NCBI GenBank assembly: GCA_038257735.1
Contig: JBBSIZ010000006.1
Coordinates: 7,975-71,974 of the forward strand
Reading direction: 5' to 3'
Length of the DNA: 64,000 bases
Source of the DNA: Sphingomonadales bacterium
GTDB lineage: Bacteria > Pseudomonadota > Alphaproteobacteria > Sphingomonadales > Sphingomonadaceae
Positions 5,336-35,860 of the stretch are shown here, piece by piece. Under the pieces are notes generated by a model. That model did no database searches, was not told the DNA's origin, and saw nothing but the letters and a program-made list of their open reading frames with translations. Numbering within the stretch: position 1 is the first letter of the stretch; every line of letters begins with the position of its first letter. A program made the position numbers and the translations under genes.

Positions 5336-5365
5336 CCCTGACCCGGCTCAAAGTACCACTTTGAG
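5336..5365. other. Conserved 30-bp motif with an 8-3-8 palindrome (CTCAAAGT-ACC-ACTTTGAG), copy 1
   Basis: 27/30 identical to 34441-34470. Related copy at 35834-35860. Confidence 0.8.
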
Positions 5366-5377
5366 ACGAGAGCCCCT

Positions 5378-8062
5378 ATGACCGCCGTCGGCAACAACGC
5401 CCTGAACACCCGCACCACCCTCACCGCCGCCGGCAAAACCTACTTTTATTACTCCCTCTCCAAAGCCGCGGCCCAGCTCGGCGACGTCTCCCGCCTGCCC
5501 TTCTCGATGAAGGTGCTCCTCGAAAACCTCCTCCGCTTCGAGGACGGGGTCACCGTCACCCGCGCCGACATCCAGGCGCTGGTCGACTGGCAGAAGGAGC
5601 GAAGCTCGAAGGCGGAGATCCAGTATCGCCCGGCGCGGGTGCTGATGCAGGATTTCACCGGGGTGCCCGCCGTCGTCGATCTCGCGGCGATGCGCGACGC
5701 GATGGCTCTGCTCGGCGGCAATGCCTCTCGGATCAACCCGCAGGTGCCGGTCCATCTCGTCATCGATCACAGCGTCATGGTCGACGCCTTCGGCAGCCCG
5801 CAGGCGTTCGAGAAGAATGTAGAGCTCGAATATCACCGCAACATGGAGCGGTACGAATTTTTGAAATGGGGCTCGAAGGCGTTCGACAATTTCGAGGTGG
5901 TCCCGCCCGGGACCGGAATCTGCCACCAGGTCAATCTCGAATATATTTCGCGCGGCGTCTGGTCCTCGGACGATCCGTCGGGCGAGTCGGTGGCCTATCC
6001 CGACACATTGGTCGGTACCGACAGCCACACCACCATGGTCAACGGCCTCGGAGTGCTCGGCTGGGGAGTCGGCGGGATCGAGGCGGAGGCGGCGATGCTC
6101 GGCCAGCCGGTCTCGATGCTGATCCCCGAAGTGGTCGGATTCCACCTCACCGGAAGCTTGCAGGAAGGGATCACCGCCACCGATCTCGTCCTCACCGTCA
6201 CCCAGATGCTCCGGGCCCGCGGAGTGGTCGGGCGGTTCGTGGAATTCTATGGCGCCGGAGTCTCGGCTTTGTCGGTCGCCGATCGGGCCACCATCGCCAA
6301 CATGGCGCCCGAATATGGAGCGACCTGCGGCTTCTTCCCGATCGACGGCAAGACTCTCGATTACATGCGCCTCACCGGCCGCTCCGACGATCGGATCGCG
6401 CTCACCGAGGCCTATGCCAAAGCGCAGGGCCTTTGGCTCGAGCCGGGCGCCTATCACGAGCCGCTCTTCACCGACACATTGGAGCTCGACATGGACCGGG
6501 TCGAGCCGTCGCTGGCCGGCCCCAAGCGCCCGCAGGACAAGGTGCCTTTGTCGCGGGTCGACGAGGAGTTCGTCGCCAATTTCACCAAGGAATATGGCCA
6601 CGCGCTGGGCGAGCTGTGCGAGCGCCATCCGGTCGAGGGCGAGTCCGACGTGACCGACATCGGCCATGGCGACGTCGTCATCGCGGCGATCACTTCTTGC
6701 ACCAACACCTCCAACCCGGCCGTCCTGATCGCCGCCGGACTCGTCGCCCGAAAGGCGCGGGCGAAGGGGCTGGATTCCAGGCCCTGGGTGAAGACGTCGC
6801 TCGCTCCGGGTTCGCAGGTCGTCACCGACTATCTCGACCGCGCCGGTTTGTCGGAGGATCTGAACGCGATCGGCTTCAACCTGGTCGGCTATGGCTGCAC
6901 CACCTGCATCGGCAATTCGGGGCCGCTTCCCGAGCCGATCTCGGCGGCGATCGCGAAGCACGATCTCGTCGCCGCCTCGGTGCTGTCGGGCAACCGCAAT
7001 TTCGAGGGCCGGGTGTCGCCGGACGTCCGGGCCAATTATCTCGCCTCGCCGCCGCTCGTCGTCGCTTATGCGCTGAAGGGCACGGTCGCCGGCGACATGA
7101 TAGAGGAGCCTTTGGGCATCGGATCGGACGGGCAGCCCGTCTTCCTCAAGGACGTCTGGCCGACCAACGACGAGATCCGCAGGCTGATCGACGCTCATGT
7201 CCATGGCGACATGTTCCGGGCCCGTTATGCCGACGTCTACAAGGGTGACGCCCAGTGGCGCTCGATTCCGGTCGCGGGGGGCGAGACCTATGCCTGGTCG
7301 GCGGGCTCGACCTACATCCAGAACCCGCCTTATTTCGAGGGCATGACGATGACACCGACTGCGCCTTCGGACGTCGAAAATGCGCGTCCACTGGCGATTT
7401 TCGGCGATTCCATCACCACCGACCACATTTCCCCCGCGGGCGCGATCAAGGGCGACAGCCCGGCCGGGAATTACCTTTCGGAACATGAGGTCAGCCGGGC
7501 GGACTTCAACTCCTACGGCGCCCGCCGGGGCAATCACGAAGTGATGATGCGCGGCACCTTCGCCAATATCCGAATAAAAAACCGAATGATTCCAGGCACC
7601 GAAGGCGGCTTCACCCGCCACATCCCCTCGGGCGAGACCCTCCCCATCTACGATGCCGCGATGCGCTACAAGGCGGAAGGAACACCGCTCGTCGTCATCG
7701 CGGGCAAGGAATATGGAACCGGCTCCTCGCGCGACTGGGCCGCCAAGGGCACCAATTTGCTCGGGGTCCGGGCCGTCATCGCCGAAACCTATGAGCGGAT
7801 CCACCGCTCCAACCTGGTCGGGATGGGCGTGGTGCCGCTCCAGTTCGTCGGCGACGTTCCGATCTTCGACGGCACGGAAACCTTCTCGATCAAGGGGATA
7901 GCCGGCCTCAAGCCGCGCCAGGAGCTGGATGTGCGGGTAACCAAAGCGGACGGCTCGACCTTCGCCTTCACTGCCCGGGTCCGAATCGACACCTTGAACG
8001 AGCTCGAATATTTCCGGGCTGGCGGAATCCTCCATTACGTCCTCCGCAAGCTCGCCGCCTGA
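5378..8062 (+). CDS. acnA: Aconitate hydratase A
   Basis: [57 protein letters not shown]; 894 aa. Confidence 0.98.
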
Positions 8063-8079
8063 GCGCGACCGAGCTCCTG

Positions 8080-8328
8080 GTGGAGGCCGCGGGCTGGGGC
8101 GGCGCGTCGCTCATCCTCTCGGCCTATCTCCTCCTGTCGATGGAGAAGGTGAGCGGCCAGTCGCCTGTCTACCAGGGCATGAACGTCGCCGGTGCCGCCG
8201 GCTTCATCGTCAACGGCTGGTGGCACGGTGCCATTCCGTCCGCCGCTCTCAACGTGATATGGATCCTGATCGGCGGCTTCGCGCTCCTGCGCATCGCGAA
8301 GCGCCGCCGGATGGAGGGGGTGTCGTAA
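8080..8328 (+). CDS. Small membrane protein (CBU_0592-like)
   Basis: Three hydrophobic segments (GWGGASLILSAYLL, YQGMNVAGAAGFIVN, AALNVIWILIG). Confidence 0.7.
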   Translation: MEAAGWGGASLILSAYLLLSMEKVSGQSPVYQGMNVAGAAGFIVNGWWHGAIPSAALNVIWILIGGFALLRIAKRRRMEGVS

Positions 8329-8678
8329 TGATCGAAGCGCTGCTGATGCTCGCGCCAATGCTTGCGCCAATGCTTGCAGCGACGGGCGAATATGAGCCGC
8401 CGCCGGAGCTCTTCTACCACCAGGCGGTTTCCTGCGCGGCCTCGCTCAAGGTCATTGTCGGCAAGGAGCCGAGCCCGGCGCAATTCGCGGACGTGATGAC
8501 CTGGGGAATGATCATGGCCGATAGCGGCCGCAGGATCGGCCGCAGCAAGGAGCAGGTCGACAGCGGCGACCTGGAAATCGCCGAGCCCTTCTACCAGCGG
8601 CTGAAGGAGACGAAGCCCAAAGCCTTCTCCGCCCACCGCGCTTATTGCCAGGCCATGTTAAGTGCTGATCGACCTTAG
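8328..8678 (+). CDS. Hypothetical exported protein
   Basis: ATG overlaps the preceding TAA. Hydrophobic N-terminus, and it overlaps the next gene start. Confidence 0.6.
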   Translation: MIEALLMLAPMLAPMLAATGEYEPPPELFYHQAVSCAASLKVIVGKEPSPAQFADVMTWGMIMADSGRRIGRSKEQVDSGDLEIAEPFYQRLKETKPKAFSAHRAYCQAMLSADRP

Positions 8679-35041: not shown

Positions 35042-35137
35042 ATGGACCGCCGTCCGCCAGGCCTAGGCCCCGCCGCCGAGGCCTTCGCGCGGGTCGCCGC
35101 CCGGATGGCGGAGTATGAGGCGAAGCGTGGCGCTTGA
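35042..35137 (+). pseudogene. Internally deleted antitoxin plus the first codons of a ParE
   Basis: MDRRPPGLGPAAEAFARVAARMAEYEAKRGA*, overlapped by gtggcgcttgaggttcgc (MALEVR). Confidence 0.7.
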
Positions 35138-35177
35138 GGTTCGCTTCCTTGCTTTAGTGCAGCCATTGCACTAGAAC

Positions 35178-35402
35178 ATGCCTCGGCTACAGCGCTTTTC
35201 CGCCTGCGAGATCGCGATGTTTTTCGCCGATCATCCGCCGCCGCATTTCCACGTGCTGGGGCGCGACGGAGCGGCGCAGGTGCGGATCGATACGCTGGAG
35301 GTGATCGTCTCGAGCGGGCGAATCGATCTTCGCGAGGCGCTCGACTGGGCGGCCGAGAACATGAAGCTGCTCGAGGCGAAGTGGCGGGAGCTAAGCGAAT
35401 GA
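35178..35402 (+). CDS. DUF4160 family protein (putative toxin)
   Basis: MFFADHPPPHFHV...ALDWAAENMKLLEAKW. Confidence 0.85.
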   Translation: MPRLQRFSACEIAMFFADHPPPHFHVLGRDGAAQVRIDTLEVIVSSGRIDLREALDWAAENMKLLEAKWRELSE

Positions 35403-35830
35403 GCATCGGCAGGATCGAAAGTGTCGCGATGAGGGCAAAGTCCGCGCTGGTCGTGACCTGGGACGACGGTTGCCGCGCCGAGATCGACCTCGCTCCGATC
35501 ATCGCCGACCATCCGAAGCTTCGCCCGCTCGCGGATCCGGATTCCTTCCCCGTCCGCTCGGACGATGGCTGGTCGGTCGAATGGCCGCATTGCGGTATAG
35601 ATCTCGGCTCGCCGCAGCTGAGGCGCTGGGCAGACGAACAGCGGGGAGAGGTGATGTCGGCCACCGCCTTTCGCGCCTGGATGCAGCGGCATGGCCATAC
35701 GCTCGACGCCGCCGCCGAGGCGCTCGGCCTCTCCCGCCGCACCGTCGCTTATTATCTCAGCGGCGAGCAGCCTGTCCCGAAGACGGTCATGCTGGCCACG
35801 GAAGGGTTCGACAAAAGGCAGGCGGCCTGA
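35399..35830 (+). CDS. DUF2442 + HTH protein (putative antitoxin)
   Basis: LVVTWDDG, GWSVEWP..IDLGS, and a C-terminal HTH (LDAAAEALGLSRRTVAYY). Confidence 0.85.
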   Translation: MSIGRIESVAMRAKSALVVTWDDGCRAEIDLAPIIADHPKLRPLADPDSFPVRSDDGWSVEWPHCGIDLGSPQLRRWADEQRGEVMSATAFRAWMQRHGHTLDAAAEALGLSRRTVAYYLSGEQPVPKTVMLATEGFDKRQAA

Positions 35831-35833
35831 ATC

Positions 35834-35860
35834 CCCCGACCCCGCCGAAGTACCACTTCG
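35834..35860. other. Motif copy 3 (CGAAGT-ACC-ACTTCG)
   Basis: Lies between the DUF2442 stop and the lepA stop. Confidence 0.7.

Follow-up and report, generated by a model that had tools for sequence, protein, structure and literature searches.

The window, that is, the whole stretch of 64,000 nt of Sphingomonadales DNA that was analysed, was found to contain acnA and lepA together with two accessory blocks and toxin-antitoxin-type genes at the 3′ end of lepA (Table 1). The 11-mer AAGTACCACTT was found at positions 5351, 34456 and 35848, each time on the + strand and each time as the apex of a hairpin; three occurrences were observed against 0.10 expected, and none of 100 shuffled sequences reached three. 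The 30-bp copy 1 (5336-5365) and copy 2 (34441-34470) were found to differ at 3 of the 30 positions (27/30 identical), followed by the presence of a variant, copy 3, at 35834-35860. Re-reading of the window reproduced the sequences and coordinates of the three hairpins given in a preliminary description, as well as their common orientation and the paired stem differences by which the palindrome arms change in step, and the gene calls bore out acnA, the lepA duplicate and lepA as neighbours. The ACC spacer, described there as fixed, is constant within the window but not across the family, in which ACT, ATC, AGC, GCC, AAC and AAT loops also occur.

Table 1. Features around the three hairpin copies, in positions of the window
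Feature	Position	Strand	Remarks
Low-GC accessory block	1945-5260	both	three genes
C5 DNA methylase (low-GC block)	1945-3564	+	
GmrSD_N-type nuclease (low-GC block)	3561-4565	-	
ORF of no known identity (low-GC block)	4562-5260	-	
Conserved acnA upstream region	5262-5377	+	promoter-like TTGCTAGAG block, then leader with copy 1
Hairpin copy 1, B-type	5344-5368	+	CCGG...ACGA foot, one G/A mismatch; 48.9 bits
acnA (aconitate hydratase)	5378-8062	+	Aconitase, E 2.5e-168
Second accessory block	30317-32814	+	C5 DNA methylase (30317-31690) and unassigned 374-aa ORF
Left arm X of unit A	33000-33614	both	antitoxin-type genes; homologous to 34764-35124
Putative PaaA2-like antitoxin	about 33918-34154	+	
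ParE toxin	about 34163-34446	+	stop TGA within left flank of copy 2
Hairpin copy 2, B-like	34449-34473	+	outer stem partly decayed; 42.9 bits; core 34456-34466
lepA′ (169-nt copy of lepA 3′ end)	34478-34646	-	93% identical to 35871-36039
Left arm X of unit B	34764-35124		homology to unit A arm
DUF4160 (35178-35402) and DUF2442-HTH (35381-35830)	35178-35830	+	toxin-antitoxin-like pair
Hairpin copy 3, A-type relative	35841-35865	+	CCCC...GAGAT, decayed outer stem; 37 bits
lepA, intact	35871-37724	-	

Folding gave the predicted hairpin for all three copies (z-scores -1.8 to -3.6). The 30-bp copy 1 ends 13 nt upstream of the acnA ATG (5378), the 30-bp copy 2 lies 7 nt from the stop of the 169-nt lepA 3′ fragment (34478-34646) and copy 3 (35834-35860) is 10 nt away from the stop of lepA (35871). 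Measured from the stem end, copy 1, whose core 11-mer (5351-5361) falls within the acnA 5′ leader, is 9 nt from the ATG, and copy 3 (core 35848-35858), which has an ortholog in genome G021, is 5 nt from the lepA stop. The stems of copies 1, 2 and 3 are followed by GACGAG, GCGCGC and ATGAGA on the plus strand and by CCGGGT, TCGGGT and GCGGGG on the minus strand, respectively.

The acnA upstream region (5262-5377) was found to be kept in species that carry no adjacent island, and about 95 nt of conserved acnA leader and promoter separate copy 1 from the restriction-modification island. The placement at the edge of an accessory block, claimed earlier for all three hairpins, thus holds for copies 2 and 3, which directly abut toxin-antitoxin genes, but not for copy 1. 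Orthologous hairpins upstream of acnA were found in about 11 of 30 species, with CTCA:TGAG, CGCA:TGCG, CGCG:CGCG or CTCG:CGAG stems, which are compensatory. Copy 1 is probably the acnA leader hairpin, and may act as such at the RNA level. An alternative leader hairpin of acnA (ATCACATC..GATGTG) was rejected as a repeat family, with one occurrence per genome.

At the lepA locus, copies 2 and 3 were found directly after the minus-strand genes lepA′ and lepA, respectively, and lepA′ is fused to a truncated ParE-like N-terminus (34647-34735). The ParE cassette with the hairpin and lepA was also found in G016, and G021 contained an 89% identical DUF2442 cassette protein with the hairpin and lepA′. 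Copies 2 and 3 would be two alleles of one lepA 3′ hairpin, each probably imported with a different toxin-antitoxin cassette and a piece of the lepA end, and we infer that the cassettes were stacked by recombination inside the lepA 3′ homology. Thirteen genomes contained the DUF4160/DUF2442 cassette, which carried a hairpin at its end only in the source genome (G000) and G021; in G076 the closest hairpin is about 450 nt beyond the cassette, and in the other 10 genomes the cassette lacks it. The view that the hairpin belongs inherently to the toxin-antitoxin cassette was therefore rejected.

Toxin-antitoxin cassettes were found to recur beside lepA, rpoA and acnA with duplications of 169-735 nt of gene-end sequence and without an integrase, which points to homology-driven cassette traffic. 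The partial gene-end duplications flank cassettes at acnA 5′, lepA 3′ and rpoA 3′, all of them hairpin-bearing ends, whereas the control ends are rarely duplicated (acnA 3′, 0/57; lepA 5′, 1/53). Duplications of the acnA 5′ end flanking VapBC cassettes were found in G042, G062 and G045, none with a family hairpin there. This traffic through gene-end homology is a side finding that may matter as much as the hairpin family.

The genome and related genomes were searched and a covariance model was built, as had been proposed, and a genus-wide repeat was recovered. The source genome contained four strong or exact copies and one or two variants (5-6 in total). The exact core was found in 86 of 101 genomes of the genus, which are related and hence non-independent, at 0-19 copies per genome against 0-5 for a reversed-pattern control. 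The covariance model gave 23-25 matches in each of four genomes; in G072, counting both strands, it gave 74, from which 45 distinct sites were retrieved (about 45-50 copies); outside the genus it matched one of 120 genomes of the order. Phage contigs contained 2-5 copies each, mostly 3-8 nt upstream of start codons and with GGAG in the hairpin 3′ arm. A 15-mer scan of the whole collection gave mostly chance matches across phyla, with enrichment of Allosphingosinicella and Sphingomonadaceae records. Rfam gave no match in the window at the gathering score and nothing relevant at E<=1 around copies 1-3 and the rpoA copy, and a literature search with the 11-mer in either orientation gave chance matches in unrelated papers only. 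The hairpins are a genus-specific dispersed palindromic repeat of a sphingomonad genus and its phages.

The unit was found to contain an 11-bp stem and a 3-nt loop, with a conserved AAGT-ANN-ACTT apex, where conservation is strongest. The middle of the stem varies, and the foot is asymmetric, with CCC on one side and GA on the other. In the 77 aligned copies, a sample partly ascertained with the exact 11-mer, the central spacer was always 3 nt (77/77), stem cells were paired in 94.1% against 73.1% after shuffling, and 179 double-change cells were found, a number reached in 0 of 500 shuffles. Compensatory stem changes were also found among the orthologs downstream of rpoA. The A-type contains GGGxxCCC...GGGxxCCC and spans about 39 nt, whereas the B-type contains a CCGG...ACGA foot and lies at orthologous positions. 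B-type copies are old residents of orthologous sites, and the A-type is still multiplying, as seen in tandem arrays (period 25-39 nt) and in nesting within the apex of other palindromic repeats. In G072, two 25-mers with eight occurrences each were nested in three larger repeat types, and the "empty" form of one host repeat was common in the source genome. Copies are mostly singlets, with few tandem arrays and few inverted pairs. The minus strand was the more stable by folding energy in 52 of 78 copies (p = 0.1), and neither folding energies nor the asymmetry of G-U wobbles and C-A mismatches singled out one functional strand. Many species have lost the hairpin at an orthologous site or show a decayed form there, and it is therefore dispensable.

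Nearly all copies in a set of 79 and in a replication set of 39 from two complete genomes were intergenic and showed one polarity. The distance from the GA foot is 0-7 nt where the neighbour is a stop codon, 6-9 nt where it is a tRNA end and typically 4-9 nt where it is a start codon downstream; the CCC foot points into open intergenic DNA. Among the 79 copies, the GA side was 0-6 nt from a stop codon in 35 and -1 to 9 nt from a start codon in 15, and five abutted a tRNA; among the 39, the GA side was tight in 29 and the CCC side in 5, with only one copy tight on the CCC side alone. The spacer between tRNA-Met and tRNA-Pro contained two copies in mirror orientation, with the GA foot of each pointing to the tRNA beside it. 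About 20-25% of copies lie directly before start codons, between promoter and start, and 11% between divergent genes, and several occupy precisely the whole gap between two convergent genes. The neighbours are mostly housekeeping genes (ftsH, rplK, rpoA, acnA, lepA, tRNAs) with both flanks conserved. Past the rpoA stop codon, the hairpin was found to be followed in turn by a canonical terminator; it would therefore be transcribed, yet is not itself the terminator. Because the copies nearly always lie a few bases outside an ordinary gene start or stop, the hairpins mark gene ends rather than the ends of mobile cassettes.

In the 1-kb flanks, low-GC DNA was found on the CCC side of 11/76 copies and on the GA side of 1/76, against a genome baseline of 3.8%, an enrichment of about 4-fold for the CCC-side flank. 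A GC asymmetry as a general island signal was rejected, the means being equal (0.663 vs 0.668) and only the low-GC tail one-sided. CCC-side flanks of non-orthologous sites shared nothing beyond a loose pyrimidine-rich TCTCT stretch, and no common target word was found in the 5′ flanks of tRNA-Pro. Clean empty-versus-filled junctions downstream of rpoA were also rejected; insertion/deletion polymorphism is present there, with blurred edges.

Family membership, structure, covariation, distribution and polarity were observed directly, and from them we infer, with a probability of roughly 0.55, a REP-like structured repeat that is independent of RAYT and acts at cistron boundaries. Long-lived copies would be those whose GA foot lies 0-9 nt beyond the edge of a functional unit (past a stop, ahead of a Shine-Dalgarno sequence or start, or beside a tRNA); they would be kept as hairpins through compensatory substitution and act within the transcript as stem-loops of the cistron boundary. 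After a gene, the GGU-loop form may protect the 3′ end or limit read-through; before a gene, the ACC-loop form may serve as a leader hairpin, its 3′ arm holding part of the ribosome-binding site. The positions in the acnA leader and the rpoA 3′ untranslated region, together with the compensatory changes, lend this RNA stem-loop indirect support. The spacing of 0-9 nt and the strict polarity, however, exceed what simple 3′ protection needs, and could instead reflect target choice by some insertion mechanism.

A purely selfish element of the DNA level is possible, if rather unlikely, namely a mobile hairpin moved as ssDNA by some enzyme, inserted with fixed polarity beside particular targets (hairpin apices, for example, or gene termini that contain A/T in a genome of 66% GC), and without host role. 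The stem complementarity would then reflect the enzyme's need for a hairpin, the strict polarity would suit an oriented insertion step, and the variation in copy number between species (0 to about 50), the bursts in G072 that placed identical copies inside the apices of other repeats, the tandem arrays of 25-39 nt period, the presence in phages and the varying presence, absence and decay at orthologous sites all agree with it. No cognate enzyme was found, however: G113, G070 and G072 gave no RAYT-type Y1 transposase, and the RAYT-type genes of the source genome are flanked by other repeats. The tRNA-Pro 5′ flanks share no target word, and orthologous sites have retained B-type copies whose stems changed in a compensatory manner. 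A selfish origin and the cistron-boundary repeat are not exclusive, and both can hold. More speculatively, and with a low likelihood, the hairpin may be a RAYT-independent mobile or recognised element with built-in polarity, whose AAGT-ANN-ACTT apex and CCC/GA foot would be read by a genus-specific or phage-encoded factor. Such a factor might insert the element at the outer edges of functional units and at hairpin apices, or might process or protect RNAs at those sites. Host chromosome and phages would then have one boundary code in common, and the sites could favour the stacking of toxin-antitoxin cassettes with gene-end duplications as a by-product.

The reading favoured in the preliminary description, a recombination or end-recognition site for integrase-less accessory cassettes beside core genes, is largely refuted and now very improbable, although in the source genome all four strong copies (4/4) have accessory genes, of restriction-modification or toxin-antitoxin type, on their CCC side, low-GC DNA favours that side, and gene ends are duplicated at acnA 5′, lepA 3′ and rpoA 3′ and rarely at control ends. 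Numerous genus-wide copies were found, mostly at housekeeping genes with both flanks conserved, the very outcome that the description had named as speaking against it. The island junction of copy 1 lies about 100 nt from the hairpin, the hairpin does not travel with the DUF2442 cassette among the 13 genomes, and the acnA duplications in G042, G062 and G045 lack it. Duplicated arms of 169-735 nt fit homologous recombination, not a 30-bp site, and we know of no tyrosine or serine recombinase core that the 3-nt spacer matches. An intrinsic (Rho-independent) or bidirectional terminator is likewise very improbable. Most copies lie just past stop codons, several fill convergent gaps exactly, and E. 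coli REPs can serve as terminators and decay blocks (bioRxiv 10.64898/2026.03.23.713779), but the stems of the window copies lead into no U-tract on either strand, a terminator scan called none of them on either strand, a canonical terminator follows the hairpin at rpoA, and about a quarter of copies lie between promoter and start codon. The earlier doubt about a simple terminator was thus justified, and its proposal of a U-less 3′ hairpin comes closest of its readings for copies 2 and 3, past lepA′ and lepA. An invariant palindromic apex and the copies in promoter-proximal leaders would also suit a dsDNA operator for a dimeric regulator binding AAGT-N3-ACTT, which is barely credible: complementarity is kept at variable stem positions, which a duplex-binding protein does not need, the majority of copies follow a stop codon or adjoin a tRNA, and the neighbours form no common regulon.

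For annotation, the motif is to be taken as a lineage-specific repeat and not as an island border or att site; it can be captured by covariance model R1 for masking, and its presence is also a flag for phage DNA of the genus.

Among known systems, restriction-modification genes of Helicobacter studied by the Kobayashi group are reportedly inserted with long target duplication or by Campbell-type integration through homology. The likeness lies in the lepA′ duplication, not in the hairpin: a 1.2-1.4 kb accessory segment between direct gene-end repeats of 169-190 nt, without integrase. Here, by contrast, the lepA repeats differ by 7% and have a separate hairpin allele each, which points to imported DNA recombined at the lepA end rather than a fresh duplication. 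Integron attC sites share a structured covarying hairpin directly past a stop codon, and recognition by shape is conceivable, but attC spans 57-141 nt against 25-39 nt, the family contains no RYYYAAC/GTTRRRY boxes (alignment A1), and its neighbours are core genes in native operons, not cassette arrays. Xer/dif-like (pdif) sites contain two 11-bp arms around a central region of 6-8 bp, unlike the 3-nt spacer found here. The A-type resembles MITE-like nested palindromic repeats (PMC3184786) in its unit length (about 39 nt), its bursts of identical copies and its insertion at repeat apices, but it lacks terminal inverted repeats like those of any known IS family, and no target-site duplication or transposase was recognised for A-type copies.

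The closest likeness was found to REP and REPIN sequences and their RAYT transposases in E. coli and Pseudomonas (PMC3116915, PMC3337134, PMC2817692, PMC3479197). Short imperfect extragenic palindromes of lineage-specific sequence, mostly after genes or between convergent genes, with occasional arrays and inverted pairs and with persistence at orthologous sites, are common to both, and REPs form stem-loops in transcripts. The proposed action at stop codons, limiting read-through and 3′ decay, would resemble that of E. coli REPs as 3′UTR regulators (bioRxiv 10.64898/2026.03.23.713779), including two-way action between convergent genes; the spacing from stop codons is much tighter (0-7 nt), and the family is also used mirror-oriented at 5′ ends and tRNA ends. 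REPs number in the hundreds per genome, the family about 5-50 and so below about 100; it conserves the apex and the CCC/GA foot in place of a 5′ GTAG tetranucleotide, and singlets rather than REPIN/BIME-type inverted doublets are the main form. Copies between divergent genes make up 11%, against about 1% of E. coli REPs, and the 20-25% directly before start codons and the phage-borne copies are further differences. No flanking or co-occurring RAYT was found: PF01797 (RAYT, Y1 transposase) gave no match in G113, G070 (both 100% complete) or G072 despite 24-50 hairpins each, and other repeats flank the three PF01797 genes of the source genome, so that a RAYT link was rejected. The family offers a compact REP-like case without RAYT, polar within 0-9 nt of coding and tRNA ends and common to phages, with a copy number low enough to trace every copy across species, so that questions on REP-type elements (selected cis-regulators or tolerated parasites, and what sets their position) become testable in a small system. 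The best reading of the family is a RAYT-independent, low-copy, polar REP-like repeat.

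The hairpin is a real structured motif and a member of a genus-wide, REP-like, RAYT-independent repeat family marking gene ends (RAYT, the Y1 transposase tied to REP repeats); it is not a cassette recombination site. In the window, the sequence AAGTACCACTT was found three times, always on the plus strand (5351, 34456 and 35848); the expected number is 0.10, and 0 of 100 shuffles contained as many as three. The three sites and coordinates of the preliminary description were found to be exact on re-reading of the window sequence, and the reported 27/30 identity of copies 1 and 2 holds over 5336-5365 against 34441-34470. 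The arms do change together, with paired differences among the three copies and a stem-loop predicted in each by folding.

Coordinates of the hairpin copies and neighbouring features (window positions unless a genome, G, contig, C, or retrieved locus, L, is named; G000 is the window's genome)
Feature	Position or locus	Content or setting
Copy 1	5344..5368 (+)	motif 5336-5365 ends 13 nt before acnA ATG (5378), divergent intergenic region
Copy 2	34449..34473 (+)	between ParE toxin gene stop and 169-nt lepA 3' fragment (34478-34646, minus)
Copy 3	35841..35865 (+)	between DUF2442-HTH gene stop and stop of intact lepA (35871-37724, minus)
Low-GC, probable restriction-modification genes	1945-5260 and 30317-32814	
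Unit A	33000-34646	arm X, PaaA2-like antitoxin + ParE, copy 2, lepA' (lepA 3' duplicate)
Unit B	34764-36039	arm X', DUF4160 + DUF2442-HTH, copy 3, lepA 3' end
Left arms X, X'	33000-33614 vs 34764-35124	~70-97% identical in pieces
lepA 3' repeat	34478-34646 vs 35871-36039	93% identical over 169 nt
acnA 5' duplications	L230 (G042), L231/L298 (G062), L247 (G045), G021:C8	
G000 RAYT-like Y1 transposase genes	C4:72608, C56:12918, C41:7267	L061-L063

Both low-GC blocks were found to contain one C5 cytosine methylase, accompanied by a GmrSD_N-type nuclease in one block and by a 374-aa partner without assigned identity in the other, and the blocks are probably restriction-modification or modification-dependent restriction systems. 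A tandem repeat was present at window 240-795 (166-nt period, 3.3 copies, 90% matches, in a 73% GC stretch), followed by a related segment at 1243-1374.

The gap-free alignment A1, on which the covariance model R1 is based, contained 77 copies, of which two rows (L044 and L045) come from G084 and G096, genomes flagged as unpublished on which no conclusion depends. The hairpin unit was found to contain an 11-bp stem and a 3-nt loop, with an apex AAGT-ACC-ACTT that is invariant in A1, partly through the way in which the copies were gathered, and with five variable stem positions. The foot was asymmetric, with C at columns 11-12 on the 5' side (the CCC foot) and G-A at columns 36-37 on the 3' side (the GA foot). 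For this structure 94.1% of the cells were paired against 73.1% after shuffling, and 179 double-change cells were found against 69 expected, an equal score being reached in 0 of 500 shuffles; pairing dropped to 32-42% when the partner was slid by one to three columns. Two subtypes were found, the B-type with CCGG-NNN-R-apex-Y-NNN-(A/C)CGA and often a conserved G/A mismatch, and the A-type with GGGxxCCC...GGGxxCCC over ~39 nt. The ACC spacer had been described as fixed; the loop is not fixed, since copies found by R1 also contained ACT, ATC, AGC, GCC, AAC and AAT. The G-T and A-C cells were approximately balanced within the stem, and the minus-strand RNA was more stable in all three window copies and in 52 against 25 among 78 copies (p = 0.1). 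The hairpin had no match among the Rfam families. An intrinsic terminator is unlikely, the terminator scan making no call at the sites, in agreement with the earlier argument, made from copy 1, against a simple terminator.

The assembly of the window's genome (3.19 Mb, 66% GC, 80 contigs) contained only four copies of the exact 11-mer, the fourth lying at the end of contig C33, 6 nt past the stop codon of an rpoA copy, and with R1 two more were recognised, a fifth on C35 whose loop is ATC and a decayed one on C4. The exact 11-mer was present in 86 of 101 genomes of the genus (G084 and G096 included) at 0-19 copies each, against 0-5 for the reversed control pattern. Four genomes contained 23-25 R1 matches each, and G072 contained 74 with both strands counted, from which 45 distinct sites were retrieved. 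Beyond the genus, which is placed at Allosphingosinicella in the GTDB sense with Sphingomonas deserti included, one of 120 genomes of the order contained a match at E<=1e-4, and this was marginal.

Position and polarity set the family apart more than any other property. In a first sample of 79 copies, 35 had a stop codon, that of an opposite-strand gene, 0-6 nt past the GA foot and 15 had a same-strand start codon -1 to 9 nt past it, whereas the distance on the CCC side ranged from ~10 to >400 nt. A repeat sample of 39 R1-derived copies from the complete genomes G113 and G070, both without a RAYT, contained 23 copies of the stop class (1-7 nt) and six of the start class (6-9 nt). Only five of the 39 had a stop as close as 7 nt on the CCC side; in four of these the hairpin takes up the whole space between two convergent genes and is therefore tight at either end. 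Copies tight on the GA side only numbered 25 against one on the CCC side only (sign test ~1e-6 by our arithmetic, related sites being non-independent). Transfer RNA genes adjoined five of the 79 copies, L045 among them. The tRNA-Met/tRNA-Pro spacer of G116, 106 nt long, contained two mirror-image copies. One is separated from the end of tRNA-Met by 6 nt, the other from the start of tRNA-Pro by 7 nt, and in both the GA foot points to the adjoining tRNA. What the rule describes is therefore the edge of a functional unit, and not translation as such. The preliminary description had placed the motif at island borders, a specificity that did not survive the genome and genus searches with the 11-mer and the covariance model, as the copies were genus-wide and their neighbours were ordinary housekeeping genes, namely ftsH (4), rplK (3), acnA, lepA, rpoA, a transketolase-type dehydrogenase subunit, pyrG and others.

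At acnA, a promoter-like block TTGCTAGAG was found ~65 nt upstream of the ATG in all species, followed by several leader forms. The family hairpin, intact or decayed, was present in ~11 of 30 species, and the flanks were conserved among the hairpin-bearing species while the stem compensates at two positions (CTCA:TGAG, CGCA:TGCG, CGCG:CGCG, CTCG:CGAG). The acnA leader seems to be always structured, because in other species (L233, L234, L236, L243, L231) a different hairpin, ATCACATC-NN-GATGTG, present once per genome, takes the place of the family hairpin. Copy 1 had been placed at an accessory/core border; in the window's genome the conserved leader reaches ~95 nt to the left of the copy, and the restriction-modification island therefore does not start at the hairpin.

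At rpoA, roughly 12 of 30 species had the hairpin, placed after the stop codon and ahead of a canonical terminator; it was decayed in some species and absent from others, and in G074 (L273) its right arm was formed by the rpoA stop codon and last codons, overlapping the coding end. The rpsM-rpsK-rpoA operon of the window's genome (rpoA at C52:14606-15697) was without the hairpin, and a run of ~11 CT dinucleotides was present in the intergenic region downstream (C52:16490-16511). The second rpoA 3' copy (C33:41306-41599, 88% identical), which carries the fourth hairpin, adjoins toxin-antitoxin genes at the contig end, with rplQ 9 kb away on the opposite strand; contig breaks blur this layout and slight contamination of the MAG is possible.

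The lepA-end hairpin was present in a minority of species only. Downstream of lepA in the window, the tandem units A and B were found without an integrase, with unrelated middle parts and with a ParE-like gene cut by the junction 34646/34647. G016 contained PaaA2-ParE followed by the hairpin and lepA (ParE 67% identical), and G021 contained DUF4160-DUF2442 followed by the hairpin, a short lepA' and lepA (DUF2442 protein 89% identical). Both cassettes occupy the same place in these other species, so that copies 2 and 3 represent two alleles of a single lepA-flank hairpin. They would have become neighbours when the cassettes were stacked, for which recombination within the shared lepA 3' sequence is the simplest route, and the lepA-side layout looks like homology-driven cassette accretion.

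The preliminary description had proposed a recombination or end-recognition site for integrase-less cassettes. Of 101 genomes, 13 contained the DUF2442 cassette, frequently next to lepA (at either end) or rpoA, which suggests that the DUF4160/DUF2442-HTH pair favours a small set of landing loci; the hairpin was at the cassette end in only two of these 13, G000 and G021. Gene-end duplications were also found elsewhere. The first ~190 nt of acnA were duplicated 1.0-1.4 kb upstream of the intact gene, with VapC (PIN) toxin and antitoxin genes or other small genes between the repeats, and the family hairpin was absent from these sites; rpoA 3' duplications flanked small cassettes in about five genomes, including a 735-nt rpoA-end duplication 6 kb apart in G062 (L296); a lepA 5' duplication was found in one genome (G066), and an acnA 3' duplication in 0 of 57 genomes. 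The flanks on both sides of most hairpins were conserved between species. These results argue against the cassette site. Of the proposed link to foreign DNA, a statistical association stands. On the CCC side, the adjoining 1 kb was below 60% GC in 11 of 76 copies; the GA side gave one of 76, and the genome-wide share of such windows is 3.8%. Such an excess is expected if a core gene fills the GA side and the intergenic regions containing the hairpins also collect foreign DNA, and insertions are known to be attracted by REPs (PMC1525189).

In G072, two 25-nt A-type sequences occurred eight times each, nested at the apex of three larger palindromic repeat types, of which the 'empty' form of one was abundant in the window's genome. 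Tandem arrays with 25-39 nt periods adjoined gene ends. From the nested identical copies and the arrays it follows that the A-type, at least, is still multiplying. Two or more further palindromic repeat families, the GGATC..CCGGATCAAGTCCGGGATGAC type, which in G072 has an A-type hairpin nested at its apex, and the CATTGCGAGGAACG...GACGAAGCAATCC type, were far commoner in the window's genome (seen at C52:15867-15900 and 16890-16960, with matches on >20 contigs). A link of the hairpin to Y1/RAYT enzymes was rejected, since the three G000 genes were flanked by other, distinct palindromic repeats; PF01797 had no match in G113, G070 or G072. Phage contigs of IMG/VR contained full-scoring copies, 2-5 each, mostly 3-8 nt before start codons and with GGAG in the 3' arm, the genes behind them including those for a primase, a CII-like activator, a ParB-like protein and an integrase. 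A prophage tyrosine-integrase gene of G113 (L315/L303, C23:106271-107647), corresponding to IMG/VR contig 3300034145_000025, was preceded by one hairpin, 7 nt from the start codon, and overlapped in its last codons by another.

A serious alternative is that the polarity comes from oriented insertion by a putative enzyme, which is compatible with the hairpin acting on transcripts. The hairpin would most likely act as a transcript stem-loop at cistron boundaries. The REPs of E. coli, recently described as local terminators and decay blocks in 3'UTRs (bioRxiv 10.64898/2026.03.23.713779), offer an analogy; the family hairpin differs from them in being also used in mirror image at 5' ends, in its very tight spacing and in its presence in phages.
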